From Candidatus Neptunichlamydia sp. (GTDB lineage: Bacteria; Chlamydiota; Chlamydiia; Chlamydiales; Simkaniaceae), in contig OZ247587.1 in the NCBI GenBank assembly GCA_965233865.1, positions 32,001 to 96,000 of the forward strand: 64,000 bases of DNA, read 5' to 3'. The notes under the pieces are model-generated. The model was not told where the DNA came from, did no database searches, and worked only from the letters and a program-made list of their open reading frames with translations. Both the position numbers and the translations under genes were made by a program. Of the stretch, positions 22,121-64,000 are shown one piece after another. Every line of letters begins with the position of its first letter. The stretch's first letter is position 1.

Positions 22121-22126
22121 GAAGTC

Positions 22127-24841: not shown

Positions 24842-25264
24842 ATGAACTTTTCAATGATAGGTCCAGCTATCGTTCTTGGCCTTGCCTGTTTAGGGAGTGC
24901 TATTGGATGCGGAATTGCTGGGATGGCATCCCATGGGATCATGGCTCGCGTTGATGAAAATCACGGTAAATTTATTGGTATGTCGGCGATTCCTTCATCA
25001 CAAGCGATTTATGGATTCGTCCTTATGCTGCTTATGAAAAAAGCTATTGTAGCGAATACCTTAACAGCATGGAATGGAATTGGAATTGGGACTTCTATTG
25101 GCTTAGCAATTATGCTTTCTGCGATTTATCAAGGAATGTGTGCGGCGACAGGAATCCAAGCCTCAGCTAAGCAGCCTGCTATTTATGGTAAGTGTTTAGC
25201 AGCCCTTGGGATTGTGGAATCCTTTTCTCTTTTTGCATTCGTATTTGCATTATTATTAATTTAA
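24842..25264 (+). CDS. atpK: V-type ATP synthase subunit K (proteolipid)
   Basis: Four hydrophobic helices; PSSQAIYG; GIVESFSLFAFVF; SD GAGGAG. Confidence 0.96.
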   Translation: MNFSMIGPAIVLGLACLGSAIGCGIAGMASHGIMARVDENHGKFIGMSAIPSSQAIYGFVLMLLMKKAIVANTLTAWNGIGIGTSIGLAIMLSAIYQGMCAATGIQASAKQPAIYGKCLAALGIVESFSLFAFVFALLLI

Positions 25265-25280
25265 GCAGTATACAGCAAGT

Positions 25281-26669: not shown

Positions 26670-26696
26670 GCCCGCTGTAAGCGGACCTGCGTAAGA

Positions 26697-27053
26697 TTAC
26701 TTCTTTTGAGAAATATCGTAACCGAACCTTAATAGCTCAGCAAGGTCAACTTTGACGTAGAAACGCCCGTCTCTAAATGCTTGGACCGTTGCAACTCCAG
26801 TTGCAGTAGTTGTTACAACTGCAAGGATATAAAGAGGAGCATCTCGTTTAGTAGCACCAGAAGTGACTAGTAGTGCACCCGTTCCGGCTGTGATAGAAGC
26901 TGTCATTTTATCCATGTCAAAAAAACTCTTTCCAATTCCAGCGGTAGCAAGTGCTGCAGCACCTAAAACCAATAGCATAGCTCTAACATCACCGTTTTTA
27001 AGATGTTCATTTTCTTTTAGTCTGTTGGTAATAATAGCATCAACTAAAGTCAT
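26697..27053 (-). CDS. Small hydrophobic hypothetical protein
   Basis: 118 aa, three Ala/Gly/Thr-rich hydrophobic segments, SD AGGAG. Confidence 0.65.
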   Translation of the reverse strand: MTLVDAIITNRLKENEHLKNGDVRAMLLVLGAAALATAGIGKSFFDMDKMTASITAGTGALLVTSGATKRDAPLYILAVVTTTATGVATVQAFRDGRFYVKVDLAELLRFGYDISQKK

Positions 27054-27147
27054 TTTTTTCTCCTATTTCCCTATTTGGATGGTTAATTTTGCAAGAGTAT
27101 ATCTGGTGAGGAGATTATTTGTCTCAAATTATTGACTAAAAAATAAT

Positions 27148-27657
27148 TTAATCATTGATGTGAAGCCCTAAGCGGGCCAGGATGAAGCGTAAGACCAGGA
27201 TAGGATGCATAAAAAATTGTTTCAATAGATTAAGGTAGGTGACGCTGTGAATTCTTTTTTTGACTAGCGGAGCATCCTTTTGGCAAGCATCGGAGATCCA
27301 ATCAGGATACGGGGGAGGGAGAGGAGGAATCTCCTGCAGGGGGAAAAAAGAAACTCCTTGAGTTTCTGCTGTGAGTATAGGGGAGCCGGAAGTAATTTGA
27401 CATTCAAAGAAGTGAGTGAAACGAGCTAAGCGGTTGAGAGGAGTGTATTCTGCAATTTTTCGAACAAGAGTGACGGTGTACCCAGTCTCTTCTTCCATTT
27501 CTCGAAGGACGGCGTGCTCGGGTGTTTCATTAGCATCGATCCCTCCTCCAGGAAGGGCCCAGATCGGAACATCTCTTCGTTTAATTAAGAGAATTTCTCT
27601 TCGGTCTGGAGAAAAAACGATTCCATTGACACTTTCTTCTTGATAGCTTTTTGACAT
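27148..27657 (-). CDS. NUDIX hydrolase
   Basis: GGGIDANETPEHAVLREMEEETG Nudix box. Confidence 0.93.
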   Translation of the reverse strand: MSKSYQEESVNGIVFSPDRREILLIKRRDVPIWALPGGGIDANETPEHAVLREMEEETGYTVTLVRKIAEYTPLNRLARFTHFFECQITSGSPILTAETQGVSFFPLQEIPPLPPPYPDWISDACQKDAPLVKKRIHSVTYLNLLKQFFMHPILVLRFILARLGLHIND

Positions 27658-27680
27658 ATAAGATAAATTCTACAAGTGTT

Positions 27681-28109
27681 ATGCGTCTGAGTCAATGTTT
27701 GATTTTTCTTTTTCTTTTCTGTTTTAGCTGTGAGAAGTATTATCTTTCAGTGAAGAGGGAGGCTGTGGACCGAATGAAACTTGCAAGTACTTTTGTAGGA
27801 AGTCCCGATCCTCTTCAAAAAAACCCACCGAAGGGGCAAGAGCTCATTTTAGAATGGCGTTTTCCTGAGGAGGCTCTTCAAGAAGAGCTTGTGCTGGTCC
27901 TTAGTGTTATCTATAAAAACCATACCGAAGAAAAAATCTGTTATCCGATTGACCGTCGTCGAGGTGTAATCACCTATTCTGTTCTTGGCAGTGATTACAA
28001 AGAAACTGATGGTTTCTTGACCTACAAAGCCGAGATCCTTAACAAGGATAATGCCGTCATCAAACAGTGGAAACAGCAGCTTTGGACAAATCTAATTGTG
28101 ATTGACTAG
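27681..28109 (+). CDS. Hypothetical lipoprotein (conserved chlamydial neighbour of valS)
   Basis: MRLSQCLIFLFLFCFSC lipobox; LASTFVGSPDP...TYKAEI...W..QLW. Confidence 0.75.
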   Translation: MRLSQCLIFLFLFCFSCEKYYLSVKREAVDRMKLASTFVGSPDPLQKNPPKGQELILEWRFPEEALQEELVLVLSVIYKNHTEEKICYPIDRRRGVITYSVLGSDYKETDGFLTYKAEILNKDNAVIKQWKQQLWTNLIVID

Positions 28110-28155
28110 TTGTAGCTTTGGCGTTGGTTGCAGAAGATTTCTTTTGATTGCGGCA

Positions 28156-30924
28156 TCAAAGCCCTGATAACTTGGTCTCTGAAGAGTTCAACTTTTCTTG
28201 TGTTTCTTTGAGAGTTGTTTTTGTCTTTTCGACAAGCTCTGGTGGGGCTCTTTCAACAAAATTGGGATTTTTAAGTTGCTTTTCAAAGGAAGTGATTTGG
28301 CCTTTCAGCTTTTCTTGCTCTTTTTTGAGGCGTCCTTTCTCTTTTTCAATAAGCTCTTTTGGAAGAGGAATTGTAATTTTTACCTCTTTGACGAGCGCTG
28401 AAGAGCTGAATCCTGAAGGTTTTTCCTCTGGGTTAAAAGAAAGAGTGTTGATACGGACTAAAGAAGAAATAATGGCGCTATGAAGCTCTATATCTTGAGT
28501 TTCTCCTTCTAAGATGACGTCGGTTGCAGCTGAAGGGGGGAGTTGCATTTCAGCTCGAATATTGCGGATGGAATAGACAATTTCATTGAGAAAAGCAAAG
28601 GACTTTTCAATGTCTGGGTTGATTGCATTTTTATCAATAACTTTTGGATAGGGGGCGGTGATGCAGGCTGGAGATCTTAAGGCATTAATGGCCTCTACTG
28701 TATAGGGGTCGGCCTTTGATTCTTTGAAATGAGGAAAATGTTCTTTTAATTTTTGAAAGATCTCCTCGGTAATAAAGGGAGCTATTGGGTGCATCAAACG
28801 GATAGAGGCAAGCAGGACAATTGTTAATACCCGTTGCTTGTTGATGGTGTTTCCACCCTTCCCAAAAAGGGTGGGTTTGGCCATTTCCACATAGTAAGCA
28901 CAAAATTCATCCCAGAAGAAGGTATAGGAGCGCATTGCTGCCCGATCGAAGTAGTATCCTTCGAGGTGGGTATTCATCTCTTCTATAGTGCGATTCAGAA
29001 CGGAAAGGATCCATTCATCATCCAATGTTAGCGGGCCTAATCCTTTTTCAAAATCTTCAGAAGAGATCTTTAGATTCATGAGGACAAAGCGCGAACCATT
29101 CCACACCTTATTCGTAAAATTCTTGAACTCTTCAAAGCGGCGGCGATCGAGATCGATTTGAGGGGAATGAGTGGCACTTGCAGCAAGGGCCATTCGCATC
29201 GCGTCTGCCCCATAGGTGTTAATAATCTCAATGGGATCGATTACATTTCCTTTTGACTTTGACATCTTTTCCCACTTAGAAAAGGCCTCTTTTTCTGTCT
29301 CGGCCTCTTTTTCTGAGAGGTAGGTGATTCCGCCATTTTTATTTTCTTTCCAGAAAGATTTTCCAAAGATAAGTCCCTGTAGAGAGGTCTCAGCAAAGGG
29401 GACTTCTCCAGTGATGTATTCTCCCATCATGATCATCCGGGCTACCCAAAAAAAGAGAATGTCATGTCCCGTAATCAGTGTTGTGTTGGGGTAAAACTTT
29501 TTCAATTCATTTGTTTTGTGAGGCCACCCAAGCGAGCTAAATGGCCAAAGAGATGAGGAAAACCACGTATCTAACACGTCAGGATCTTGGGTCCATCCTT
29601 TAGGATCCTTTTCAACTTCAGGAGGGTTGCCTTCTCCCTCATAACAAAGTATTTTGCCGGATTCGTGGTACCAGATAGGAATCCGGTGGCCCCACCAAAG
29701 TTGTCTTGAAATGCACCAGTCTCGAAGGTTGTTGATCCAATGGAAGTAGGTGTTTTCCCAGTTTTTAGGGATAATTTTGACTTTTTCAGATTTTACAGCA
29801 TCGATCAGCTTTTCCTTAAAGGGCTCCATCTTGATGAACCACTGTTTTGATAGGAATGGTTCAATGATCGCTTTTGAACGATATGAGACACCCACTCTAT
29901 GAGTATAAGGGACAATCTTATCTAGGTGGCCGAGCTCTTCCATCCGTTTGACGACATGACGGCGAGCTTCTTCCATTGAGAGCCCCTCGTACTCTAGTCC
30001 GTTTTCATTGAGGGTTCCATCGGGATTCAAAATGTTAATGAGAGGGAGGTCGTGTCTTTTTCCCAGCTCCCAGTCGTTGGGATCATGTGCGGGGGTGATT
30101 TTAACTACTCCAGTTCCAAACTCTGCGTCGACGTAGTTATCAGCAATAATCGGAATTTTTCGACCAACAATTGGCAGGATCACGTTTTTTCCAACGAGTG
30201 GTTGATAACGTTTGTCTTTTGGAGATACAGCGACAGCAACATCTCCTAGGATTGTTTCAGGGCGAGTGGTAGCAATGGTTAACTCTCCACTGCCATCCTC
30301 TAGAGGGTAGCGGAAATGCCACAGATTTGTTTCTTTTTCTTCGTATTCGACTTCATCATCAGCAAGAGCTGTTTCGGTCACAGGATCCCAATTTACAAGG
30401 TAGTCTCCCCGATAAATGAGTCCTTCGTCAAACATCTTCTTGAAGAGCGTGCGGACAGCGAGATTAGCATCCTTATCCATTGTAAATCGCTTGCGCATCC
30501 AATCAGATGAGCAGCCCAGTTTTTTTAATTGGTCAATGATTCGCCCTTCTGATTTTTCTTTCCATTTCCAGACATGTCCTAAAAACTCTTCACGATCGAA
30601 ATCAGAGCGTCTTTTCCCTGTCTTGGCAATGAGGTGTTTTTCGACGACTGTTTGTGTTGAAATTCCTGCATGATCTAGACCTGGGAGCCAGAAAGACTCG
30701 TACCCAAGCATCCTTTTCCAACGAATCATCACGTCTTGGAGCGAATTAATAAGAGCGTGCCCCATATGGAGCACCCCCGTCACATTAGGGGGTGGCATCA
30801 CGATGCAGTAGGGTTTCTTATCGGAAAGAGGGTCAACATGAAAGAACCCTTTTCTTTCCCAAAAGTGGTACCATTTTTCTTCAACTAAATCGGGGCTATA
30901 CGCCTTCGGAAGCTCTTCATCCAT
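28156..30924 (-). CDS. valS: Valine--tRNA ligase
   Basis: PPPNVTGVLHMGH, DWCISRQLWWGH, KMSKSKGN, C-terminal coiled coil. Confidence 0.99.
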   Translation of the reverse strand: MDEELPKAYSPDLVEEKWYHFWERKGFFHVDPLSDKKPYCIVMPPPNVTGVLHMGHALINSLQDVMIRWKRMLGYESFWLPGLDHAGISTQTVVEKHLIAKTGKRRSDFDREEFLGHVWKWKEKSEGRIIDQLKKLGCSSDWMRKRFTMDKDANLAVRTLFKKMFDEGLIYRGDYLVNWDPVTETALADDEVEYEEKETNLWHFRYPLEDGSGELTIATTRPETILGDVAVAVSPKDKRYQPLVGKNVILPIVGRKIPIIADNYVDAEFGTGVVKITPAHDPNDWELGKRHDLPLINILNPDGTLNENGLEYEGLSMEEARRHVVKRMEELGHLDKIVPYTHRVGVSYRSKAIIEPFLSKQWFIKMEPFKEKLIDAVKSEKVKIIPKNWENTYFHWINNLRDWCISRQLWWGHRIPIWYHESGKILCYEGEGNPPEVEKDPKGWTQDPDVLDTWFSSSLWPFSSLGWPHKTNELKKFYPNTTLITGHDILFFWVARMIMMGEYITGEVPFAETSLQGLIFGKSFWKENKNGGITYLSEKEAETEKEAFSKWEKMSKSKGNVIDPIEIINTYGADAMRMALAASATHSPQIDLDRRRFEEFKNFTNKVWNGSRFVLMNLKISSEDFEKGLGPLTLDDEWILSVLNRTIEEMNTHLEGYYFDRAAMRSYTFFWDEFCAYYVEMAKPTLFGKGGNTINKQRVLTIVLLASIRLMHPIAPFITEEIFQKLKEHFPHFKESKADPYTVEAINALRSPACITAPYPKVIDKNAINPDIEKSFAFLNEIVYSIRNIRAEMQLPPSAATDVILEGETQDIELHSAIISSLVRINTLSFNPEEKPSGFSSSALVKEVKITIPLPKELIEKEKGRLKKEQEKLKGQITSFEKQLKNPNFVERAPPELVEKTKTTLKETQEKLNSSETKLSGL

Positions 30925-30989
30925 AGGCGACAATTATATCTTGGATACTTTGTGAAATCCAGAAAAATCCGCACAATCTGCTTTTCTCC

Positions 30990-33821
30990 CTAGATGAAGT
31001 TGAGAGGAATGGCAGCTTTGGTGAACTCTTTGTCGATGAGAGCTTCATATTGAGCGGCTTTACGAGGTTTATCGAGACATGTGTAGTATAGGGAAAGCTG
31101 GCGGTAGAGCTGTAGTTTTTCCCAGAGGAAGGATTGATTAAACCAAGGCCCTTTGATGTCAATATGCCCTTTGAGAAAGTGTGCAAGGAGTGAGGGGGTA
31201 AAAGGGAAGGTTGCTTCCAGAAGGGGATCAAAGTGTTTAAGGGCAGCATCCTCTCCTTTTGACTGGGCTAGATGGCATCCTTCTAACATAAAGTAGATCG
31301 ACGACTGGTTGTTTATAGGTTTTTTTTCGAGAAGTTTTTCGATTGCTTGTTTCTTTCCTGATAGGAGGAGAGCCCAGATGTGCTGAACCTCAAACTTAGG
31401 AGTCTTGTCGAAGTATGGAAGAAGTTTTGAAGCTTCTTTAATTGTGAGACCTTGGTTGAAAAGGGTAGCTACAAGTTGCTCACTCCCCTTGGCTAGGAGT
31501 CTATCGAGTTTTTGAGTAAGAGTTGTTTCTTCATTAATTGCTATTTCAAACGATTCTTTCAAGAGGACAAAATCTTCATTGCGGTACTTTACAGAGAGGA
31601 TAAAGTCGATAAGTTTAGGGTAGCGAAGTTCAAAAAGTGCTAAGAGGCCGTTTTGAAGAAGAAGCTCTCGATGCTTATATTCTTTAGGAATAGATTGAAC
31701 GAGCTCATAGAGGATGTTGGGGCGCGCTAACCAAAAAGTGAGTTGCATAGAGAGTTGAAGGTGTTCTTCATTTTCGTCAGAAAAATTTATGGGGGTAGTG
31801 ATAAAAGGAAGGTCTTCCCAGCTCACTGTAAGGTTTTTGGTTAGGCGGTTGGTTTCTTTTAAGTTGTAAATTTTTGGGATGTGACGGAGAGTCAGTAGGG
31901 TATATGCATAAGCTCCAATCCGGTCTTTTTGAGCCGTTTCATGCAAGCGAAAAAGGATATGTTCATCTAAGACATAGCGGAGTGGGTGCTTGGGAAATTT
32001 TCTTACTCCCAGCTCTAAACATTTAAGCTCCTCCTCCAGATTATTTTCGGCCTGATAGACAAGGGCTTTCCCAAGATACTCAATTGGAGCTCCAGAGGTT
32101 TGGTGAAGGGTTTCGAACTCGTCGAGGGCTTTTTGAAAATATTCTTTCGACTGGCTCTTGTTGTCCTGGGCCTGTTTGATCAATGCATATCCTGCACGGA
32201 ACACGGCTTCTCTTCCCTCAGGGCGTCCTCTAAACGAGTTTGCAATTCGTCTGTACTCTGTAATTGCTCGATCGAAATCCTTATTCAAAAGGAAAGCATC
32301 AGGGACAGCTAAACAATTGACGAGAACATTTTGACTTCCTGATGAAAGCTGAATAGGGGAGATTTCAAACTCGACGTCTTTTGAAACAATTCCAAAATGG
32401 CCACCCACAAGTGGAGTATGGCTCATGTAAACCATTTTTTGTACGCCGTTGATAAGAAGTCGGACAAAGTTATCTTGTCTTTCCACAGCAATATTATAAG
32501 CTTCCCCAGGTTCTAAGAAAACATCGTCAATGCGTGTAACTTCAACATTGTCACGGAAAAGTTTACATCCTGGGGTTTCCTTTGAGCCAATCCATACGAG
32601 AAATCCTTTTTGCAAACTTTCTCGACGGCTATCATCGGGGATACATAACATGATACCAATCCCTCCGTTGTTTTCTAGTGGACGGACAAGGGCTTGGGCT
32701 TGGATGTTTCCGGAGTAAGACTCTTTTGAAAGCATAATCAAGACCCATTCCATCAGTCCTGCGTAACGGAAAATTGCCATTTGTTTGGTTAACATGACAC
32801 TTTCTTGGAATTCCCAGTCTATAATTCGGTTAATATCAAGTTGCTGCATGGGGATCCAGTCTGGGTGTCCTTGAATATAGCGCTGCATTTCCGTGATGAT
32901 TTCTTTTACTGAGTCATAACGTTGTTTAGGGTCAGGTTGGAGACTTTTGAGAGTAATGCGTGTAAGTTGTTGAGTGATTTCTCGAAAGGGAGCAACCGCT
33001 TGAGGATTGATAGGGGGCTCAAATCCGCTGTCTCGAAGTTGTTTCCTCCATTCTTTGAGCTCTCGAGGGCGTCTATAGGGAACTTGCAAAGTTAGCATAA
33101 AATGAAGTATGACTCCAAGGGAATAGATATCACTTTTAATGGTTGCAGGTTGACGAAATGCCCGTTCAGGGGCCATATAGTCAATCGTTCCAGCTGCGGC
33201 TCGGATGTTGGGTTGGTCTTTTCCCGGAGCGTTACCTTCTTCATCTTCTGCTTCACTGCCACTGATGATCTCAGTGGCAACGCCCCAATCAAGAATGGTG
33301 ACTTCGTTGTACTCTCCGACGATAATGTTTTCAGGTTTGAGGTCACGGTGAAGGAATCCTTTCGAATGAGTGTGCTCTATCGCCTGACAAATATTGAGGA
33401 AAGCCAGCATTAAAGAGGGAATAGATCCTCCCATGATATGAGGAGAGAGGCCATTGTCATTGGATATTCGTGTTTTAATGAGGATCATCCGAAGCGTTTC
33501 ACCCTGAAGGTAGGGCATCGTATAGTAGAGATTATTTTCATCTTCATGGAGGTCATAGATTGGAACAATGGTTGGGTGTGCTAGCTGCGCTGCAATCCGC
33601 ACCTCTTTTTTGAATCGATCGCATGCTTTTTCTTTACTCTTTCGCTTAGGCGTAATTCTTTTGAGAGCAACTTGACGGCCACAGATAGGGTCATCGGCGA
33701 GAAAGACCTCCCCCATCCCCCCCATCCCAATCAATTTTAGGATGGTATAGCGCCCAATCTGAAAAGGGTATTCATACACGGGAATTTCGTCTTCGTCTTT
33801 TGATTTTTTCTCTCGTTCCAT
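30990..33821 (-). CDS. pknD: Ser/Thr protein kinase PknD (chlamydial type)
   Basis: [32 protein letters not shown]; long C-terminal region with TPR-like helices; adjacent to valS. Confidence 0.92.
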
Positions 33822-33916
33822 TTTTGCTAGATTTTGTTTTGAAAATGTCTCTTTCTTACACAATAGCAAACTTTTTCTACTTTCTCCAAAGAAAAAATCA
33901 TGATACACTGAACTTT

Positions 33917-34942
33917 ATGACAAAAAGACACACCATTCTAACGGGAGACCGTCCTACAGGCCCGCTTCACTTGGGGCACTTTGTAGGATCATTGAGAGCT
34001 CGTGTAGAGCTTCAGGAAAGATGCGATCAATACGTAATGATTGCTGACCTCCAAGCTTTGACGGATCACGCCAAAAATCCAGAAAAAGTGCGCGAAAATG
34101 TTCTTCAAGTTGTTTTCGATTATCTTGCAGTAGGAATTGACCCTGCAAAGACCACAATTTTTATCCAGTCTCTCATTCCTGCTCTTTCTGAACTGACAAT
34201 GTATTACCTCAATTTGGTTACATGGAATCGCCTTAAGCATAACCCGACTGTGAAACAAGAAATTGTTCAAAAGGGGTTTGGAGAAAGCGTTCCTGCAGGA
34301 TTTATGACGTACCCTATTTCTCAGGCTGCCGACATCACAGCTTTTAAAGCGGATCTGGTTCCTGTTGGAGAAGACCAAAAGCCGATGATTGAGCAGACCA
34401 ATGAAGTTGTCCGCGCCTTTAACCGCACTTATAACACCAATGTTTTGGTCGAAGCAAAAGCACAAATCCCCAAAATAGCTCGGTTGCCAGGAACTGATGG
34501 ACAATTAAAAATGGGAAAATCGCTCAATAATGCCATTTATCTTTCAGATACCCCAGATCAGGTTTCTAAGAAGGTCAAAAAAATGTACACCGATCCGAAT
34601 CACCTTCAAATCCAAGACCCAGGAAAAGTTGAAGGGAACCCTGTATTTAGCTATCTCGATGCTTTCGGCACTGACCTTGATAAAATTCATGAGCTAAAAG
34701 CTCACTATGAAAGAGGTGGACTTGGAGATGGAACCGTCAAAAAGTATCTTCTAGAGGTTCTCTTAGAGTTTCTTGAGCCTATCCGCCAAAGGCGGGCCCA
34801 ATTTGGAGAAGATAAAAACGCAGTCATGGATATCCTTAGAAGAGGAACTGAAATAGCTAATGAAACAGCATCTCAGACCCTTCAGGAAGTACGTGCTGCG
34901 ATCGGAATCAACTATTTTAAATCCGCTTCTCTCTCTTCATAA
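33917..34942 (+). CDS. trpS: Tryptophan--tRNA ligase
   Basis: [34 protein letters not shown]. Confidence 0.98.
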
Positions 34943-35113
34943 AGAATGGTTAGAGATCTATTTGATCATCAAAAATCGGCCTGAGCTTGAAAAGCTATCG
35001 TTTATTGATCGGAATTTAAAAGATCTTATGCTACAGCTAATGGAGCTGAATTCCATGGATCATCTCTCTCTCCAAAAGAAGCCTTACATCACCAATTTTT
35101 CTCACTTTAGTAT

Positions 35114-55014: not shown

Positions 55015-55341
55015 TTTCTTAAATCTATCCATAACACATTCTCCCTTCAGCGTTTGCAATTAAAAAGCATAAAAAATATTGCTGCGTTGCTCTGCTTTAA
55101 AATGGAAAAAATGCCAAAAAAAGCACATTTTAAGCACAGCAATCATTTAGAGATGCTTTTATAAGGAGCTTTTGGAAAAAACATCTTGAGAAAGTCCCTC
55201 CATTGCATCAAGGGAAAAGGGGACCTATCCGATAGATGGTCCTTTGCCTCTTTCTGCTCATTAATGTTCTTTTATAAATGGCATTGAATATATTTGAAAA
55301 CCATTATAGAGTGAAAAATTGAGATAGAATGAAGGAAAATC

Positions 55342-55781
55342 ATGAAGCGACTTGAGCCCGGCATCAAAAAAATCCTGGGAAAAAGAGAGATTACTACAGG
55401 GTACAGATTCGACTTAAAGGACATAAGCACCTGTCAAGAAATTTTGATAAATATCAAGATGCAAGGAACTAGCGCTATGAAACAATAGAGGCAATGCAAT
55501 CTCACCGTCCTTATGAGACAACTCAAATGCGTCGAATGACCCTTGGGGATTTAATCGATAGATATATTGCTTCAGAAATGGATGAAGAGTCGAGTAACTA
55601 TCAAACACGGCTTGGACAGCCTCAGTGGTGGAAAGAGGAGATTGGTCACCGTAGGTTAACACAAGTCACAGAAGACCTTATCTGTCAGTGTCGGGATAAA
55701 TTACTCAAGATGAAAGACCAATTTGGTCGGTTTCGCTCAAAACCCATATGTATAGTCACCTTGTTTTGGACCAATCGATAG
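55342..55781 (+). pseudogene. Phage-type tyrosine integrase, N-terminal remnant
   Basis: MKRLEPGIK / frameshift at the A7 run 55366-55372 / YYRVQIRLKGHKHLSRNFDKYQDARN*(TAG 55470)...TLGDLIDRY...WWKEEIG; no catalytic domain. Confidence 0.75.
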
Positions 55782-55903
55782 AAGCTATTAATCGTTTTGG
55801 AGACTTCTTATCCGGCGAGGTATCAGTGTTCATTTAAATTTAGTATTGATAAAATTAGGGCAGTAATGTATGTCTAAAATTTATAAGAAAAAATGGTGAT
55901 AAT

Positions 55904-56875
55904 ATGACTCAATCTCCAAACCTAAAACTCCAAATTGAAGAGCTATCAGGGCTCTTTTTCAAAAGAGATAGTGAAATCAATCGCATTAGACATGAGTGGA
56001 ATGAGGCTCTTCTTGCACGACCTCTGGAACTTATCATAGATTTTTGGATTGAGCAGGTAACAGAAAAGAAAAAACTAAGCAAAGAAACGGCTCACAACTA
56101 CCAAAGATATTTAAAAGATCTTCGAGCAAAGGGAATCCTACCAAAAAACGTTGAAGACGGCTCTCCCTTTACCTTGGAAGTGTTTAAATCGAACAGTCAA
56201 ACTGTCTTCAAAGCACTTTTAAATTATCCAGATCTTACTCAGCAGGAAAAACGATTCCGTCTAAATGCCCTCACATCCTTTGTAAACTTTTTAAATGAAA
56301 TCACCACTGGGGTCATCCGTAAACTCTCGATCCCTAAAGAGCTGGAGCTTAAGAAAACGGTACGCTCTACGGCTCCAAGAGTTCTTACTTTGACAGAGTG
56401 GCATCAGTTTTGGACTGCTTTAGAAAAGATCTCTTTCAGAGATTGTCTAATAGCAAAGATCATGCATTTCACAGCCCGTCCTCTTCTAAGGGTGCTTGAG
56501 TTAAAGACGACCAATTTAAAATATGAAGCAAATGTACAAGTTACCTTTAATAAAACTGATGGTCGTGATTGCGTGATACAGCTCGATTCAAAAATGAAAG
56601 ATGATCTTGAAAAATATCTCGAAAGCACCAAGAGTGCTCGTCTAGGAAACGATCAAACCCTTTTTATCACTTCACAAGGAAAACCGATCTATCGCACTCA
56701 TCTGACTCAAGTCTTTAAAAGAGCTAGCTTAGAAGCAGACCTTGGATTTTTTGTAAGCGCGAAAATGATTCAATGGTCACACGTCTACGATATGTTAAAC
56801 AGAATGAACTTCAGTAAAGCGCTGATTACTGAAAAATTGAAATTAAAAAATTTATCTAAACATTTGGAGGTTTAG
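55904..56875 (+). CDS. Tyrosine-recombinase-fold protein resembling chlamydial plasmid integrases Pgp7/Pgp8, probably inactive
   Basis: LSKETAHNY, RLNALTSFVNFLN, EWHQFWTALEKISFRDCLIAKIM..TARP...VLEL, LFITSQGKP; no HxxR motif and no C-terminal Tyr. Confidence 0.75.
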   Translation: MTQSPNLKLQIEELSGLFFKRDSEINRIRHEWNEALLARPLELIIDFWIEQVTEKKKLSKETAHNYQRYLKDLRAKGILPKNVEDGSPFTLEVFKSNSQTVFKALLNYPDLTQQEKRFRLNALTSFVNFLNEITTGVIRKLSIPKELELKKTVRSTAPRVLTLTEWHQFWTALEKISFRDCLIAKIMHFTARPLLRVLELKTTNLKYEANVQVTFNKTDGRDCVIQLDSKMKDDLEKYLESTKSARLGNDQTLFITSQGKPIYRTHLTQVFKRASLEADLGFFVSAKMIQWSHVYDMLNRMNFSKALITEKLKLKNLSKHLEV

Positions 56876-57207
56876 CAATAAAAACAGGAGAAAAAGGAAT
56901 GCCCGCATGCGCCAACATACGGGCAAACTGGAAGTAGTTATTCTAGGCTCTTTCTCTCCCCAATTACCCAACATAGATCTATTAGAGTCAAACACAATGT
57001 GTATTGATTTTAGTCGATCACGGTGTTCTTTTTGCTAAGCCTCCTTAACAAAGGAGAATTCCATTCGCTAGTTACTTTACAAGCAGCCAGAAGGCCTGGA
57101 AGAATGCCTTGTCAGGCTATCAAACAGAATTTTTATTAGAGAGAGGGAATTTTTTCATTTTCTCTCTTTCCAAGGCAAAACAAATCCAATCGAGAGGGAG
57201 TAGAGTT

Positions 57208-57519
57208 ATGTACACAACAGATAATATGCAAGAGCTGTGGAAGCGAGAAATTTATAACGCACTTCCTGAACACTTGAACGAGAAAGATCTTGTGGCCTGG
57301 GGGTTTTATAAAAGTTTGCATGCTCTGCGCCAAGACCGGCAGGAAGGATTTAGCCCTCTTTTTAGAAGAAATGAAGAAGGTCAAAACATCTATTTAAAGG
57401 ATGATCTCGTTAGGTGGTCAGAGGTGTCTTCTAAACCAGGCCGAATCCTTTCCTTTCCAAAACAAGAAAAGAAAAAATATCAAAATAAGGAAGAAGTGCA
57501 GCTCACCTTTTTTGATTAG
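57208..57519 (+). CDS. Excisionase/AlpA-like HTH DNA-binding protein
   Basis: LPEHLNEKDL...SLHALRQDRQEG.SP.F...IYLKDDLVRW; SD GAGGGAG; position before the primase. Confidence 0.7.
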   Translation: MYTTDNMQELWKREIYNALPEHLNEKDLVAWGFYKSLHALRQDRQEGFSPLFRRNEEGQNIYLKDDLVRWSEVSSKPGRILSFPKQEKKKYQNKEEVQLTFFD

Positions 57520-57577
57520 AAACGGAGCGTTGGAGCACTCTTTCAGCGCCTAAATTTAATCGTCAATAAATAGCAGT

Positions 57578-59869
57578 ATGGAATTTAACATGTTTATAGC
57601 CAATGGAACTGACACACAAGATAGAAGAGATCTCGAAATGAAAGGTGCAGCTTTTTATGAGTTTACTCAACAACCTCTCTGAGTTATCAGCGCAAAAACA
57701 GGAGAGCCCAAGCAGCTCAATGGTAAGTATGCTAAATCCAACGATTCAACAACTTGGCATAGTCACTCTGAAGTTCTTAGCAAATGTTCAAAAGAAGAAT
57801 TTCCAGCACTCGCATTACAAAAGGAGTCTCATCTGGTTTTTATAGATTTGGATAATGTCCGTAATCCAGATACTGGCCACATTCTTCCATGGGCTGATGA
57901 GCTCATTAGACAATTAAATAGCTACACTGAAATCAGCCGTTCGAATTCAGGCATCCATATTTTCCTGTATGGACAAGCCCCCCTTTTAGAAAATGAAAAG
58001 TTGCGTTGCAAAGCATCAAATATCCTAGGGACATGCCCTGATTTCGAAATATTTTTTAAAAATAAATTTGCAACGATTACCGGAAACATTCTTGTCGATC
58101 AACCAATTCGTCAAGTGGCGAAAAATGAAATCCTTCAAATTTACCGAATGTTTTTCCCAAAAGATACATTCGAAGACATATCTGCTCAAAAACTAGAAAA
58201 CAGCCCGAGCATGACGAATGAAGAATTGCTGGAGCGGGCACGCCATGCAAAGAATGGTCGACGCTTTAGCGACCTTTATGATCGCGGCAGCTGGAATAGT
58301 CGTTACAGTAGCGCATCAGAGGCAGATATGGCATTGACTGGTATGCTGGCATTTTATAGTCAGAAAGAAGAGCAGTTGATAGAGTTGCTGATGGCATCAG
58401 CGCTTTATCGAGAAAAATGGAAAGAAAGAGAGAACTACCTTCCAACTCTCGTTCAAAAAGTGTTAAGCACAGCTCAAGGAACCTTCCAATCTCCTTCAAT
58501 ACGCATCAAGATATTAGCAAAAGAAATTTTGAAAGAGGAAAATCCTTGTAAAGATTTTAGCTTGGGTCTTTTCCCATCCTGCGTAAAAGAATACGTGTGC
58601 TCTATAACAGAGCACTGTGAGGCGCATCCCATTACGACACTAGGATCTGTTTTAAGCATAACCTCAAGTTATGGGAGTCGATGCTATGTCGATTACTTTA
58701 GGAAACTCTTTCCCAACACTTATCAACTGAATTTAAAAGCTTCAGGAGGAGGCAAATCAACTGCACTCAACAAAGGAGCACACTATGCTCTGATTAGAGA
58801 ACAAGAAATCGCTAAGGATCTCAAAATCCGCATTGATAATGCCGCTGCACAAGAAAGTAAAAAAGACGAACAGAAACAGATCAAAGAAGCGCTTAAGCAG
58901 CGCGCTAACCTCTCAAGACTTATGCCTTCACGAACAACTGCCCAAAGATTATTTACAGACCTTGGAAACGGTCATAGAGGAGTCGTGCTTCTATCGGAAT
59001 TTAGTGGATGGCTTGATGATTTAGAGGTTAACTATAATGCTACGATAAAAGTCACATTAACAGAGCTTTATGACTGTCCAGAGTTCTTTGAAGTTAGGCT
59101 TAAAAGTAACATTCAGGCTCCTGAGATCCTGATTAATCCTTTTTTCGGGATTATGGGGGTCTGTACCCCAGAATGGATTGAAGGGAAGCTAAAATCTGAG
59201 GATATTTTTAAGGGCTTTCTGGCTCGGTTTTTGCTTTTTTGGATAAAAGATAAGCCCAAAAAGCCAAGAGCTTTGTCCGGCAGTAAATGGGTTCCCCCAG
59301 AATCATTAAAAAACGCCCTTGAAAAGGCAGAGCAATTTGAAGGGGAATATTTTCTCCGAGAAGAAGCTGAAATCGTATTTGTCATGATCTACGATTATCT
59401 TTGGGATAGCCTTTTAACCGATTTCCCTCTTGAAGAGCAGTTTGCTATTATTGAACCTTTTCTAAAACGATGGATTCTATCAATTTTGAAAATAGCCTTA
59501 GCATTTCATCTGCTCGAAGAACCAGAAAATCGTAACATTGCAGCCCGGCATGTTCAAGCAGGTGCCTATTATGTCGGATTTGCCATTAGTAGTACTCTTC
59601 ACATATTAAAAAGTGGACTCTTTGGTAGCCAATTTGATAGAGACTGTCAATCAGTGATAAAATTTTTCGCTGAAAGAGGGGGTTCTGTAATGCGAAAAGA
59701 TATTCTAAAGGCAAAGCGACTCAAACAAGGAAGGAAGTATGCTGGTGTGCAGACTTATGATGACATTCTTGACTTCCTGTTAGAGAGCGGGCAACTTGCA
59801 GTTAAAGAGTGCCAAGCAAAAAGTAAGAGGACCTATAGACTCAGCGTTGAAAAAGGGAGTGGAAAATGA
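57578..59869 (+). pseudogene. Prim-pol (NrS-1-like) fused to a DUF3987/YfjI-type P-loop helicase, with one in-frame TGA
   Basis: ATG 57578, TGA at 57680-57682, then AKSNDSTTW, VFIDLD, YTEISRSNSGIHIF, SASEADMAL, ASGGGKST, LLSEFSG, GFLARFL; the downstream ORF 57848-59869 is in the same frame. Confidence 0.8.
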
Positions 59870-59879
59870 GGAGCATCGT

Positions 59880-60142
59880 TCGAAAGCAATCGAAACGCTT
59901 TTCGATTCAACATGACAACCCCATAGTTCTTATTTTCAACAATATACATCCTATTCAATTAGAAGATCGAAAAGTCGAAAGGGTAGAGAGCATTTTTTTC
60001 ATTTTCAAACTTTTCTTAAACCTATCCGCATTTCGATTTTTCGATCACCATAAAATTTCTTTTTCTTTCATATCATACAATCTTGACTATCAAAAAATTA
60101 ACGAACTTTTCATTAGTCGAAATAGGCTTCGATTGCTTTCGA
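59880..60142. repeat. Nested inverted repeats of TCGA iterons, candidate replication origin
   Basis: Perfect 15-bp IR 59880-59894/60128-60142 and 15/16 IR 59965-59980/60031-60046; ten TCGA cores arranged 3+2/2+3. Confidence 0.8.
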
Positions 60143-60170
60143 TTCCTTTCCTTCAAGGGGAACTTTCTCT

Positions 60171-61746
60171 ATGACATGGACACTTACAAATTATTCCAAA
60201 TTCTTAAGAAGTCTCCGCACAGAAAAGCTCTCCTCTACAACGAGTGTTGATCTATTGACTCTTTTTATCTATGAGGACGCAAAATCGATCTTACAACGGT
60301 TTAAGATCAATATACGCTTCGTTGACTCACTTGAAGCTGCTCGACAAGCGATCAGTGATATAGCTGAGCAAAAAGACGTTATTGGATGTGACATTGAAAC
60401 CACTCCATATTGAATTACCTAAAGAGCTCCAGACGTCCGACTGGTCTAAAAATACTCTCTCGTCTGAACAGATTGCTTATGCGGCCTTGGATGCTGCTGT
60501 AGTGAAAATCCTTTCCGAGGATTTATTAAGCGAGCTTGGAAAGCGAGATATGCTTCCCATTACCGCTATTATTCAAAAAGCAATCCCCGCTGTTGCAGCG
60601 ATGGAGCTTGCAGGGATTCCTTTTGATTGGGAATGCCACCAAGCTCTTGTCGACGAATGGAAACAGGAAGCAAAAGCTTTAGCTCATTCGATTCAATCAA
60701 ATTTGAATATTAACGATCTATCAAGCACAAAAAAAATCCAGCAGCAATTTGGGAACTATTTTGAGAAACGAGATTTTACAGTTGCCAAAGACAAAAGTGG
60801 ACGTCCTAAGCTCGGTAAACAAGAGCTTGCTCAATTTAAGGAAGACCCTTTAGTGGCAAATTACCTCGATTACACCTGTCTCAAAACCCGTCTTTCTACC
60901 TTTGGGGATACTCTACATGCTCGTGCCAACCCTGTGACAGGCAGAATTCATCCGACGTTCCTGCATGGGCGTGCGAGCACAGGCCGCTTCGCCACAACTA
61001 ATCCCAATACGCAAAATTTCCCCAGGGGTTCTTTTAAACACCTCATTAAACCTGTGGAAGGACACGTTTTTGTGGTTGCCGATTACAGTCAAATAGAGCT
61101 TCGACTCATCGCCATTGTTGCTGAAGAAGAAAACATGCTAACAGCTTACAGATTAGGAAAATATCTCCACAGAATGACAGCGTCAAAAATATTATACATT
61201 CCTCCCAGTGAGGTTACTCCAAAGCAAAGAACCTGCGCAAAGGCGGTCAACTTCGGGTTTATTTATGGGCAGAGAGAAGGTGGATTCATCAGAGTCGCTA
61301 AAAACGATTACGGGTTAGAAATCGATTATAACGAAACCAAGAAGTATCGAAGCGCTTTTTTTCATGACTACCCAGCAATCGCCAGCTGGCATCAAAAAAT
61401 AGCTCACCAAATACAAGCAACAGGGAAAACTCGAACGATGAATGGGTGGGAAAGAGATTTCAACAAAGAAGTCAAAAAAATGATCAATAAGAAAGAAGAA
61501 TCCTTCCAGAAAAAAACCATAAAATGGGATATCCAAAAAGCGAAAATACAAAGCGAGGAGAAAATTTTAGAGGGTCATCGGAAACGCGCAAAATTGCAAC
61601 CCACCCGTTTGCCTTTACAAGAGCGTTTAAAGAAAAAAGAAATCTGCATAGACGAGCTAAAGAACAAACACCGCCTTCTAGAGCGAGAATGTTCCCTCTT
61701 AAATACTCGTATTTTACAGGCAAAAAACCAAGAAAAGAATTGCTGA
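60171..61746 (+). pseudogene. Family-A DNA polymerase with a partly deleted 3'-5' exonuclease and no motif C
   Basis: ExoI GCDIETT (ORF 60171-60413), frame change, ExoIII YAALDA, TGRF...PNTQNFP, motif A ADYSQIELR, motif B KAVNFGFIYG; no VHDE. Confidence 0.85.
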
Positions 61747-61800
61747 AAAGAGCGATGCTTAGCATATCAGTCGGGTTATTTCTTCTCTTATCATCCGTTT

Positions 61801-62100
61801 TTATTTCCAGTCTCTTTGCTCAATATCTTTGAGAATCAAAGGAAAGAATCCTCCGGTTTGAGGAAGGACTTCCATAAAGGACCACTTGAAGAAGAAGGAC
61901 TCAAGGTCTTGAAGGGCTGATGGAAAGATTTTCTCTCGGGATAGCCAATCAAACAAGGGGAAGAAATAGAGTTGTTCCGCCCGTCTTAGCGGGGTTAAGT
62001 GAAGGTAGTCAACCCCTTCTTCCTTCCATGGATCTTTTTCTGTGTATTGGCTTAAGACTTCCTTGCCGCTTTTTTCAACGATCTTTTCGATTGCATTGAT
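61801..62100 (-). pseudogene. 5'-truncated gene fragment (about 99 open codons)
   Basis: INAIEKIVEKSGKEVLSQYTEKDPWKEEGVDYLHLTPLRRAEQLYFFPLFDWLSREKIF...QRDWK*; no start codon, and its upstream end abuts the IS200 hairpin. Confidence 0.55.
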
Positions 62101-62101
62101 T

Positions 62102-62276
62102 CCCCGCAGCTTGCTGCGTAAAAGCTGAACAAGTATAGTTTTTTGGCATGAGTGAACATATTCATAAAAGTCATAATGTCTCAGTTTTGATGTACCACAT
62201 AGTTTGTCCGGCCAAACACAGGAAAGCGGTATTTGACAAGAGTGTTGATGAAGAAATTAAGGTCATATGCCTATAA
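62102..62276 (+). mobile_element. IS200/IS605-family remnant: left-end hairpin plus truncated TnpA (62148-62276)
   Basis: CGCAGC-TT-GCTGCG hairpin; MSEHIHKSHNVSVLMYHIVCPAKHRKAVFDKSVDEEIKVICL*. Confidence 0.85.
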
Positions 62277-62468
62277 CTAAATTATATCAAATTAGCTATA
62301 TGGTCCCTAAATGAAACACGTTAGCGGAAAGATTATTAAAATATATGAAAAAGAAATTAAGTAAATAAAAAATACTATATTTTTAAATTAAAACTAACTA
62401 ATAAAGCTTTTTTACAATTTACAGGAAATTATCCTTCGTTTATGCTGGATTAAAGAGGAGCAAAAATT

Positions 62469-63140
62469 GTGAAGCTATTTAAAGATAAACTTCCTGAAAT
62501 TTTAATAACAGGTGTAAACCGAGGGCTAGGAAAGTATTTTTTCACAAATCTTTCCTCTGATTATAAAGTGATTGGGACCACACGCAAGGAGTATGATAAT
62601 CACTTTTATTTAGACATGTGGAAAACACATCTGTTTGAAAAAGAGGTTGAGAAAATTTTTAAGTCAAATTCTCCAACGGTTTTAATTCAAAATATCGGAG
62701 TAGGAGGGATTGGTCTCCCTTCTGATTTTTCTAGAGATCAACTTGAAGACTATTTCATAGTAAATTGTATTGGACCCCTCCTTTTCATAAACGAATTTTT
62801 GAAACAGTCTGTTGCAAAACCAAAAGTGATAATCATTTCATCGGAGGTTACCAAAAAATATTATCCTTATTTAGGTGTGTACACAGCTGCTAAAATTGCA
62901 TTAGAAAAATGTTTACTGGACCTTCGAAAGGTTGAAAAAATTTCTATTAGTATCATTCGACCAGGACCACTTCAACCTTCAAATGAACTATCGCCTATGA
63001 AAATGGAAGAAGGAGAAGTTCGTAATTTTTCAAGCTATGGAGGTTCGGATAAACTGAATTTAAAATGGGGCTCCCCACAAACGGTTTTAACGTCTATTCT
63101 TGATATCATCAATTCCATTAAACCTAAATTATACTATTAA
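62469..63140 (+). CDS. Short-chain dehydrogenase/reductase (SDR)
   Basis: ITGVNRGLG, IISS, YTAAK, IIRPG; SD GAGGAG; AT-rich. Confidence 0.88.
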   Translation: MKLFKDKLPEILITGVNRGLGKYFFTNLSSDYKVIGTTRKEYDNHFYLDMWKTHLFEKEVEKIFKSNSPTVLIQNIGVGGIGLPSDFSRDQLEDYFIVNCIGPLLFINEFLKQSVAKPKVIIISSEVTKKYYPYLGVYTAAKIALEKCLLDLRKVEKISISIIRPGPLQPSNELSPMKMEEGEVRNFSSYGGSDKLNLKWGSPQTVLTSILDIINSIKPKLYY

Positions 63141-63156
63141 AACATAAATAATACTT

Positions 63157-63192
63157 AAACATTCATTTAATTTTTAAATTAAATGAATGTTT
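63157..63192. repeat. Perfect 17-bp AT-rich inverted repeat
   Basis: AAACATTCATTTAATTT-TT-AAATTAAATGAATGTTT. Confidence 0.8.
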
Positions 63193-63261
63193 CGTAATTA
63201 ATTTATTTCCTATTTTTGCTATATTTATATATAGTATTAGCAAAGACACCGGAATGATCTT

Positions 63262-63813
63262 TTGAATTTCCCATCCTTTACGGCAATCAGAAATATTCCC
63301 AACCAGCTATCTGTTGATTCGAAAAACTTTTATACAATGAACGATCTCAAGGTTGCACGCAATGCACTCTTCATGGCGAACCTCATCAAACTCTTTGGAC
63401 TGGCTTTATTCTTAGGAGAAGTGAGTCGCATTCTAAAAATAGACCCCAAGATTAAGCTGAGGGCTCCCATGACCAAGCTTAAATGGCTGAAGTTTTTTTG
63501 GGTCTCAATTCTATCTAGAGAGTGTCTGATTATTGGGGATAATGTTTTTGAACTCTATGGCAGACGGCCCGCAGGAGCAACCATTTTTCTTCATGAATCG
63601 AAGATGCAAGAATTAGCTGATAAAAAGTTTAAGGATTGGTCGTTGTCTTATTTGTGGGATATTGCTGTGAATACAGGTAAAGCAGCCTTTTCGACTGCGA
63701 CTCAACCGGAAGAAGTCGCACTGATTAAGCAGATTGCATTCATTTTCCAAAACTCTACAACTGAAAAAGCATTTCAAATTTGGCATGAGCTCTCTAAGAA
63801 TTTTAAAAAATAG
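63262..63813 (+). CDS. Hypothetical protein
   Basis: 183-aa ORF, no recognisable motif; start uncertain. Confidence 0.5.
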   Translation: MNFPSFTAIRNIPNQLSVDSKNFYTMNDLKVARNALFMANLIKLFGLALFLGEVSRILKIDPKIKLRAPMTKLKWLKFFWVSILSRECLIIGDNVFELYGRRPAGATIFLHESKMQELADKKFKDWSLSYLWDIAVNTGKAAFSTATQPEEVALIKQIAFIFQNSTTEKAFQIWHELSKNFKK

Positions 63814-63814
63814 T

Positions 63815-64000
63815 TCAAGAATCGCCTTTTTCCTCAATAGCGGGGTTTAAGAAATTTGAAGCACTGACAACTTTGCGACCACTCTTTTCTTCTAGCTCCT
63901 TCCTCGCATTCCCAGCAATTGCCCCTCTAGCTTTTGCCGCTTTTTTGTTCTCCGTAAATCCTTGTGCATCGTTTTGAACCGCAATTTCAGTTGTGGTTAC
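63815..64000 (-). CDS. C-terminus of a Bro-family (phage antirepressor-type) protein; 5' part outside the window
   Basis: TTTEIAVQNDAQGFTENKKAAKARGAIAGNARKELEEKSGRKVVSASNFL. Confidence 0.75.
   Translation of the reverse strand, partial: VTTTEIAVQNDAQGFTENKKAAKARGAIAGNARKELEEKSGRKVVSASNFLNPAIEEKGDS

Follow-up and report, generated by a model that had tools for sequence, protein, structure and literature searches.

A decayed integrative island with primase-helicase, putative origin and polymerase genes in Candidatus Neptunichlamydia, and its relatives in the Chlamydiota

Introduction

What kind of mobile element brings a primase-helicase, a putative replication origin and a DNA polymerase of its own into a tRNA gene of an obligately intracellular bacterium? 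The question is raised by an island of about 9.1 kb that begins at a tRNA-Ser(UGA) gene near the right end of a 64,000-nt stretch of DNA (the window; positions 32,001 to 96,000 of contig OZ247587.1, assembly GCA_965233865.1) from Candidatus Neptunichlamydia sp., a member of the Simkaniaceae. The mobilome of the obligate intracellular chlamydiae is thought to be very small, consisting of plasmids, a few islands and microviruses. An earlier note, made from the sequence alone, had described the locus as a tRNA-Ser island with its own replication kit, and had suggested a possibly undescribed chlamydial integrative element that combines a satellite-like module, a dedicated family-A DNA polymerase (PolA) and a gene of chlamydial-plasmid type, now decaying in this copy. 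We find that the island is likely to be a dead copy of a site-specific integrative element, once self-replicating, of a phage-related family that is thinly spread across the Chlamydiota.

Positions marked w are those of the window (G000:C1:32001-96000), where G000 is the window's own genome, a single contig of 1.83 Mb; other G codes denote compared genomes and L codes denote loci or contigs with relatives, L081 being a metagenome contig.

Results

An island bounded by copies of the tRNA-Ser 3' half

The island extends from the tRNA-Ser(UGA) gene at its left border (attL) to a second copy of the tRNA 3' half (attR), which lies just beyond the window and was recovered by searching the genome with the tRNA region, as the earlier note had proposed; the two copies share 88% identity over 51 nt. 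The site is empty in the closest genomes of the same genus (G045, G032 and G034), where the tRNA gene lies within about 12 nt of the right flank. Alignment identifies the element-derived part of the attL tRNA as its 3' half from about w54967, with CCTGCAAGGG as its variable arm and GTTTCTT as its trailer. Both are shared with attL of a related element in genome G333, which belongs to a different chlamydial family, and attR has retained the ancestral arm CCTTCACGGG and the host trailer as at the empty sites. Because attL thus matches the G333 element and attR matches the empty sites, the element supplied its own tRNA 3' half. The alignments show an insertion into the 3' half of tRNA-Ser(UGA), in which that half was replaced by the element's copy and the original moved to attR.

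Between these borders the features that had been listed are all present and in the order described: a tyrosine integrase stump, a 323-aa recombinase homologue (rec323), a hairpin, two small helix-turn-helix (HTH) genes, an AEP primase-polymerase (prim-pol) fused to a DUF3987 helicase, a symmetric TCGAAA array, PolA, cargo genes and a Bro stump. Likewise in agreement with the earlier note, none of the 13 island proteins matches a capsid, terminase, tail or conjugation family in Pfam or PHROG, absences that carry little weight in a decayed copy; the same searches found no portal gene between attL and attR, and no ParA or DnaB in the island. Phage structural genes further to the right, which had been named as the sign of an ordinary prophage, are also missing, as the 9 kb beyond attR holds host genes only. 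The island is present as a single copy in its genome. Three sequencing runs of one study contain the stretch almost whole, and in the two that were examined the island has the same read depth as its flanks and contigs bridge attL; a run from another study contains identical pieces across attL at low depth, and no RNA data set is listed among those that contain the stretch.

The prim-pol/helicase gene and a putative origin

The prim-pol gene is homologous to its relatives from w57590 onwards and matches the NrS1-1_pol-like_HBD (3e-11) and DUF3987 (4.9e-8) profiles and a PHROG for DNA primase (8.9e-37); the AEP motifs FIDLD and SGIHIF and the Walker A motif GGGKST are all present. Codon 31, which encodes Trp in the G333 and L029 proteins, has changed from TGG to TGA (w57680-57682), and the first start after this stop, at w57848, is already past AEP motif I (FIDLD). 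The N-terminal part has its nearest counterpart in the G333 element (45-47% identity). In a comparison of w58490-59869 with L039 and L038, the helicase and C-terminal portion matches proteins of G101 and of another G333 contig, C3 (30-33%), and not that of the G333 element itself, on contig C14. This suggests that domains may have been shuffled in this protein; the iteron word differs as well.

The putative origin begins 11 nt after the stop codon of the prim-pol/helicase gene. Of the 77 TTTCGA/TCGAAA sites in the window, nine fall within its 263 nt, against an expectation of about 0.3 from the window's average density, and they form nested inverted repeats, with 26-nt arms of 85% and 16-nt arms of 94% complementarity, around an AT-rich spacer of 50 nt. 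The comparative evidence is stronger than this site count. Symmetric arrays occupy the same position in eight relatives, each with words of its own: GTTGGCA followed by TGCCAAC in L032 and L081, ATGACA/TGTCA in L030 and L031, CGCGAC/GTCGCG in L029, GAGACTA/TAGTCTC in L033, CTTACAC/GTGTAAG in L034 and GGTTGA/TCAACC in L039, which is without PolA. L038 has no clear array, and the comparison excluded L035, L036 and L037. Conservation of position together with element-specific sequence is as expected of origins that would each be read by their own initiator.

A family-A polymerase

The polymerase gene is a pseudogene in two frames of what is a true family-A member (DNA_pol_A, 8.4e-53). Compared with the complete 764-aa PolA of L081 it is without residues 1-79, 114-202 (the exonuclease core) and 657-764 (motif C). 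Motifs A (DYSQIELR) and B (RTCAKAVNFGFIYG) can still be read, and only the last 44 positions of the Pfam exonuclease profile remain. Motif C is absent from all frames of w61000-64110, where a maximum-sensitivity hidden Markov model of the C-termini of seven relatives matches with positions 1-75 of its 170 only.

For the fragment, NCBIfam gives 'bifunctional 3'-5' exonuclease/DNA polymerase' as the best match. Bit scores of the complete L081 protein are 220 with 8jrb, 217 with Plasmodium PREX, 139 with Klenow and 131 with Taq, and the window fragment gives non-discriminating scores (8jrb 145, Klenow 136, PREX 133 bits). Among plasmid records the best matches listed are cyanobacterial, some of them plasmids of 12-17 kb, and none of the 25 matches listed is chlamydial. 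In IMG/VR, seven loci match PolA at no more than 32% identity, and no match to the prim-pol was found.

Relatives across the Chlamydiota

We surveyed 400 scored genomes of the phylum with cut-offs of E<=1e-10 for the prim-pol and E<=1e-45 for the PolA type, the counts including G000. The prim-pol was found in 13 genomes and the PolA type in ten, and in all nine of the other PolA-positive genomes a primase lies beside PolA or is fused to it. The prim-pol is 2-3 kb upstream of PolA on the same strand in six of the nine, and in G157 an AAA_25 primase-helicase adjoins PolA. The module therefore recurs in the phylum, the earlier note having named its failure to co-occur elsewhere as grounds for rejection, and one copy is syntenic and open-framed: contig C14 of G333 has at the same tRNA-Ser(tga), in a different chlamydial family, the order int367, rec310, HTH94, orf158, primpol792, iterons and PolA, all open. 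L081 carries a close relative of this element (PolA 92% and prim-pol 75% identical), in which the complete PolA is followed by three small open reading frames (ORFs), a Bro gene on the minus strand, a cI-like HTH_3 gene, RecT, YqaJ and a beta-lactamase-fold gene.

What follows PolA differs among the relatives. TerS is present without TerL in L029 and L036, and TerS and TerL are both present in L033 and L034. At a tRNA-Met gene in G157 (L035, G157:C1:336000-355999), a 9.5-kb element is bounded by perfect 53-bp repeats and has open frames for an integrase, a primase-helicase and PolA, and no packaging genes. In L029, L033 and L088, which also have prim-pol and PolA, ParA is the neighbour of a Pgp7/8-type recombinase of canonical form.

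Several further observations concern individual relatives. In G373:C14 (L036, 7918-10878) and G075:C75 (L037, 5002-7971) a Zn-ribbon or Toprim primase domain is fused to the N-terminus of PolA, giving proteins of 986 and 989 aa whose primase-exonuclease-polymerase chain is reminiscent of apicoplast PREX; TerS (in L036) and runs of GNAT acetyltransferase and APH-type kinase genes lie downstream. L035 contains three 53-55-nt repeats of the tRNA-Met 3' end (3079-3133, 6524-6578 and 16092-16144), which indicates two tandem islands at one tRNA, a 3.4-kb one with an integrase fragment and the 9.5-kb PolA element. In L029 (G318:C1:774000-793999) a MatE gene, and not a tRNA gene, is apparently split (2451-2834 and 15469-16704) by an element of about 12.6 kb with ParA, the canonical Pgp7/8-type recombinase, a YhcG nuclease, TerS, PolA, iterons, prim-pol and HTH_17. 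L030 (G208:C2, 210-9267) and L031 (G152:C6) have a P-type ATPase, a multicopper oxidase and an OEP/HlyD/AcrB efflux set beside the PolA element near tRNA-Phe, which may be metal-resistance cargo; the far border of the element was not found at either locus.

Phage-type genes also occur elsewhere in the phylum. A 35-kb contig of a genome of the window's genus (G148:C102; L062, positions 15000-34999) encodes RusA, a large terminase, a portal protein (phrog_156, 7e-85), a major head protein (phrog_1357), an exonuclease and an O-like replication initiator. The contig has the look of a genuine tailed phage or prophage, and it carries neither the island-type PolA nor the island-type prim-pol. Large-terminase genes related to that of L034 are found in G227 (L060/L061, C1:2147000-2186999) and G196:C145 (L063) among helicases, a DnaB-type helicase, SSB and serine recombinases, with no portal or capsid gene recognised by PHROGs within 13-40 kb. 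A search for portal and capsid genes (the G148 portal protein, PF05065 and PF04860) in five genomes with TerL or PolA gave no match, and is uninformative, as the two Pfam families also missed G148 itself, which has a portal and a head protein by PHROG.

A degenerate recombinase homologue, a separate integrase and small HTH genes

Of 72,556 plasmid records searched by tblastn, 114 match rec323, and all are from Chlamydiota (Chlamydia 109, Candidatus 2, Chlamydophila 1, Simkania 1, Criblamydia 1), with 25-27% identity among the 25 matches listed. Its predicted structure has the two-domain fold of Xer, Cre and lambda Int (mean pLDDT 72), with XerA, XerH, Cre and lambda Int as top Foldseek matches at E of about 1e-7, and its Pfam score is 19.1, below the cut-off of 27.1. 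The description of this gene as a Pgp7/8-like, plasmid-type recombinase thus holds for its homology and fold and probably fails for recombinase activity. In the alignment rec323 retains Arg I (TAR), AKMIQW replaces the HxxR motif (AKTLQW in rec310 of G333), and a 15-residue GH..Y segment with the Tyr nucleophile, present in all five plasmid-type homologues aligned, is absent from both rec323 and rec310. Five further proteins (P0002-P0006), 57-71% identical to rec323 and encoded on contigs of 22 kb, 27 kb and 1.17 Mb, share the degenerate C-terminus, and its conservation in rec323 and these five homologues argues that the protein is under selection. On this evidence rec323 is a catalytically degenerate homologue and probably not a recombinase.

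The integrase of the element is a separate tyrosine integrase of tRNA type. Its remnant comprises the N-terminal third only, interrupted by two in-frame stops, and aligns at 45% identity with residues 11-144 of the G333 integrase (367 aa); the catalytic domain has been lost. The hairpin that follows rec323 is terminator-like on the minus strand. Of the two small HTH genes, the first is a pseudogene with TAA and TAG stops and 58% identity to residues 41-83 of the 94-aa ORF of G333, and the second, orf136, has a conserved counterpart in the G333 element (34-37% identity to orf158). By position and by eye orf136 reads as an AlpA/Xis-like HTH protein; it has no Pfam, PHROG or NCBIfam match, and Atlas gives only a lead (Phage_Cox, 0.88, below 0.9).

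Decay, cargo and flanking genes

The copy, which the earlier note had taken to be decaying, is dead, its integrase, one HTH gene, prim-pol and PolA all being broken, and by its sequence it would be able neither to excise nor to replicate. The only island genes still open are rec323, orf136, the short-chain dehydrogenase/reductase gene and orf183 (Table 1). Recoding of the in-frame stops was considered and ruled out, as all three stop codons (TGA, TAA and TAG) are involved and the host genes have open frames when read with table 11. What had been called a Bro gene does belong to the Bro family and is a C-terminal stump, not an intact gene: the last 55-69 codons remain, without the Bro-N domain, and share 80% identity with the Bro-N protein of L081 (residues 222-276 of 287). 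The stump ends 30 nt before attR. No remnant of TerS or of the ORFs that follow PolA in L081 was found by tblastn in w61750-62470.

Table 1. Features of the island, from attL to attR (w, position in the window)
Feature	Position	Strand	Basis or remark
tRNA-Ser(UGA), attL	w54929-55015	+	ARAGORN; alignment with empty-site tRNAs of G045 and G032 and with G333 attL
Tyrosine integrase remnant	w55323-55736	+	tblastn with 367-aa G333 integrase (int367); translation
rec323, 323-aa recombinase homologue, open	w55904-56875	+	tblastn, alignment, predicted fold
Hairpin, 11-bp stem	w56900-56925	unstranded	directly after rec323
First small excisionase-type HTH gene, pseudogene	w57054-57182	+	comparison with G333 94-aa ORF; translation
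orf136, open, 136 aa	w57109-57519	+	directly upstream of prim-pol
AEP prim-pol, NrS-1-type HBD and DUF3987 helicase gene	w57590-59869	+	Pfam, PHROG, tblastn
Putative origin, TCGAAA/TTTCGA array	w59880-60142	unstranded	site count and repeat analysis
PolA pseudogene, two frames	w60306-61746 (w60306-60407 and w60373-61746)	+	Pfam, NCBIfam, alignment with L081 PolA
Ankyrin-repeat gene fragment (3' end)	w61816-62087	-	84% nucleotide identity to gene at G000:C1:289436-290620
IS200-type (Y1 transposase) 5' fragment, 177 nt	w62096-62272	+	98-99% identity to 9 other genomic copies
Short-chain dehydrogenase/reductase cargo gene, open	w62469-63140	+	Pfam; low-GC stretch (0.33)
orf183, open	w63262-63813	+	no Pfam, PHROG or NCBIfam family match
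Bro-family C-terminal stump	w63818-64000, continuing to w64024	-	PHROG; comparison with L081 Bro-N protein
attR	w64054-64104 (G000:C1:96054-96104)		54-104 nt beyond the window's last base; genome search with tRNA region

An ankyrin gene convergent with PolA is also found in L035. The bin of the IS200 fragment has a high read depth, and the IS200-type Y1 transposase element is present in at least ten near-identical copies in G000:C1 (for example at 210417-210912, 243318-243813 and 822161-822656).

Left of the tRNA-Ser gene lie rplT and pheS. The order to the right of attR is two membrane-type ORFs of unknown function, an ion-channel gene, a CBS gene, a PAPS_reduct-domain gene and a GTP_EFTU-domain gene, which as a pair are read as cysD/cysN-like, an MFS transporter gene and ferrochelatase. 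The two membrane-type ORFs (w64284-64931 and w65232-65651) are paralogous, and the first ends in TEDTENKG-like peptide repeats.

Discussion

The observation from which this work started is confirmed as a whole, and the interpretation that came with it is supported in part. An island with defined borders, empty sites in the same genus, and a replication module that recurs with its putative origin elsewhere in the phylum is most readily read as a fossil of an integrative element, and because relatives have TerS, TerS with TerL, or RecT/YqaJ after PolA, the family is phage-related. In an intact member, the tRNA-type tyrosine integrase together with one or two small excisionase-type HTH proteins would carry out insertion and excision. 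The AEP prim-pol/DUF3987 helicase would recognise the element-specific iterons that immediately follow its own gene, arranged as two inverted sets on either side of an AT-rich spacer, melt the DNA there and prime synthesis, and the element's own proofreading family-A polymerase would extend the primers. The conserved, catalytically dead rec323 would probably serve as a site-specific DNA-binding accessory or regulator. Spread would probably be by phage-type packaging, which we propose because relatives have TerS or TerS and TerL directly after PolA.

A number of points weigh against this account. The check for a circular form that the earlier note had recommended came out negative: contigs of the four runs contain no attL-attR or circle joint, a result from contigs that cannot exclude rare excised forms. 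There is no terminal overlap in four contigs of 8.8-12 kb with relatives (L033, L034, L036 and L037), and no circular form is documented. None of 14 sampled genomes of the same genus has the prim-pol or PolA, and no close intact copy is at hand. The G333 contig stops at its edge inside PolA, neither attR nor the PolA C-terminus is found elsewhere in G333, and the full element is known only by joining it to the metagenome contig L081. No capsid or portal gene was found beside the PolA-bearing relatives, so that phage-type spread is argued from terminase genes alone. The proposed mechanism, with its putative assignment of iteron binding to the prim-pol/helicase, is drawn, for all members, from domain content and synteny.

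It is a serious possibility, though one that we stop short of calling probable, that the island is what is left of a complete temperate tailed phage, whose late genes to the right of Bro were deleted and whose early and replication region stayed behind between attL and attR. The genes that follow PolA in L081 (Bro-N, cI-like HTH_3, RecT and YqaJ) are those of a typical temperate-phage early region, TerS and TerL follow PolA in L033 and L034, and a contig with TerL, portal and major head genes exists in a genome of the genus (G148). Deletion is also plainly at work in the island, at least three events being required by the loss of most of Bro up to 30 nt from attR, of the PolA 3' end beside IS200 debris, and of the 3' two-thirds of the integrase gene. 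However, a deletion that runs from inside Bro to 30 nt before attR and spares attR would be a coincidence, capsid, portal and tail genes have so far not turned up in any PolA-bearing relative (TerL is where the contigs that have it stop), and the 9.5-kb L035 element, with its perfect repeats and its open integrase, primase-helicase and PolA frames, has no packaging genes. This last element, compact and without structural genes, would also suit a satellite of the type of the phage-inducible chromosomal islands (PICI), including the Staphylococcus aureus pathogenicity islands (SaPI), or of P4, which would replicate itself after induction and be packaged in the capsid of a helper phage. We consider this rather unlikely. 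SaPI and P4 have the same order of integrase, HTH and primase-helicase genes, with an iteron origin immediately after the helicase gene, TerS without TerL in L029 and L036 fits it, and tailed-phage genes exist in the genus; yet no capsid-remodelling, helper-interference or derepression genes are recognised, no helper phage is known, TerL and RecT/YqaJ are present in some relatives, and we know of no described satellite family with its own DNA polymerase, a literature search on this point having listed only the PICMI paper, with its preprint, and the AgaPP paper. The satellite label given earlier is therefore apt for the arrangement of integrase, regulators, replication genes and origin without capsid or tail genes, and is unproven as a statement of lifestyle, given the terminase and RecT/YqaJ genes of relatives and the chance that the island is a deleted prophage.

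An integrated plasmid derived from the chlamydial plasmid lineage is improbable. The exclusive match of rec323 to plasmids of Chlamydiota, the ParA and canonical Pgp7/8-type recombinase genes beside prim-pol and PolA in L029, L033 and L088, and the cyanobacterial plasmids, some of 12-17 kb, that are the nearest non-chlamydial PolA relatives among the matches listed all speak for it, but the element has a separate tRNA-type integrase, clean att sites and a replaced tRNA 3' half, the island lacks ParA, none of the 25 PolA-matching plasmid records listed is chlamydial, and neither the ends of the small relative contigs, which do not overlap, nor the read depth of the island, which equals that of its flanks, suggests a free plasmid. 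We thus retain the integrative element of a phage-related family as the likely reading. More specifically, and only tentatively, this may be an unrecognised lineage of temperate double-stranded DNA phages or phage satellites of Chlamydiota with its own kit of AEP prim-pol/DUF3987, iteron origin and proofreading PolA of PREX/Aquificae type, of which the island would be a fossil.

Comparison with known systems

With SaPI and other PICI the family shares, in the layout commonly given for these islands, an integrase at an att site, small HTH regulators, a primase and helicase followed by an origin of two iteron sets around an AT-rich spacer, and TerS in only some members. It differs from them in having its own family-A polymerase and a primase that is an AEP prim-pol fused to DUF3987, in the absence from the island of recognised capsid-morphogenesis or interference genes and of any known helper, in the TerL and RecT/YqaJ of some relatives, and in its obligately intracellular host phylum. 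P4-like satellites likewise combine a tRNA-targeting integrase with an iteron origin and with a small HTH gene of AlpA/Vis type that precedes the gene for a fused primase-helicase. In P4 itself, the alpha protein is of the Toprim/D5 type and DNA synthesis is left to the polymerase of the host, and, unlike P4, the island has no equivalents of psu, sid or delta in Pfam or PHROG searches. Pipolins and casposons are integrative elements that likewise encode a DNA polymerase, and pipolins are found at tRNA genes and have tyrosine recombinases, but the polymerases of both are of family B (primer-independent or protein-primed), with Cas1 in casposons, in contrast to the family-A enzyme, AEP primase-helicase and iteron origin found here.

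The chlamydial plasmids (Pgp7/Pgp8, ParA/Pgp5) have recombinases homologous to rec323 at 23-27% identity, and ParA and a canonical Pgp7/8-type recombinase recur in some relatives of the island. In contrast to those recombinases, rec323 lacks HxxR and the Tyr, and the element integrates at a tRNA gene by a different integrase; for replication it has prim-pol and PolA, where the C. pecorum plasmid that was compared has a DnaB-like helicase. A phage-derived gene set on some chlamydial plasmids is described in PMC7846284, in the available part of which the word 'primase' does not occur, and the accessible text of PMC5010888 reports a terminase-bearing island at tRNA-Thr in Protochlamydia and states that little is known of phages of amoeba-resisting bacteria.

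The PolA of L081 type would lie near cluster 8, the 'Hot Spring 1 / Aquificae-like' family-A polymerases of PMC10201439 that include apicoplast PREX, a likeness that is drawn from alignment scores (PREX well above Klenow and Taq) and not from that paper's own classification. The portion of PMC10201439 at hand groups PREX with Aquificae- and cyanobacteria-type PolAs, mentions AEP prim-pol fusions in Verrucomicrobia and Planctomycetota, gives cluster 8 an 'unknown role in prokaryotes', and nowhere contains 'chlamyd'. The island family differs from cluster 8 as described there, its prim-pol and PolA being separate genes with the origin between them, in integrative elements. For the prim-pol, the closest likeness is to the NrS-1-type prim-pol and AgaPP/AgaPH modules of PMC11724360. 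The island shares with them the NrS1-1_pol-like HBD and DUF3987 domains and a place beside an integrase and a tRNA, and the available text of that paper shows a DUF3987 protein to be a 5'-3' helicase that cooperates with PrimPol; in AgaPP elements, however, PrimPol itself is the replicase and the cargo is pAgo, whereas the island has a dedicated PolA. The accessible part of PMC5862659 describes AEP families with DUF3987 and a C-terminal winged helix, the latter being proposed to read origins. No published description of a chlamydial island with prim-pol and PolA was found in the literature searched, in keeping with the suggestion that the element is undescribed.

Conclusions

As far as we could find, the family is real and apparently undescribed; it combines a primase-helicase, an origin and a dedicated PolA, is phage-related, and has satellites, small phages and integrative plasmids as candidate lifestyles. 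The picture of the chlamydial mobilome would be widened by an integrative element that recurs in the phylum, brings its own primase-helicase, origin and polymerase, and is linked in some genomes to terminase genes. It also includes a conserved, catalytically dead tyrosine-recombinase homologue, rec323, that seems to be kept for another task. The copy in the window, a dead remnant, is of no use as a genetic tool; intact members have a defined integrase/att pair and a compact set of origin and replicase genes, both of them candidates for genetic tools in environmental chlamydiae. The family provides a mobile-element setting for PolA of the PREX/Aquificae type, and should the lineage prove to be one of phages or satellites, mobile-element replication would be a role for a polymerase subfamily that the available text of PMC10201439 lists as without known function in prokaryotes, and whose nearest solved relative is the apicoplast replicase. 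A lineage of this kind would also mean that the phylum has a mobilome of tailed-phage type beyond the microviruses known for Chlamydia.

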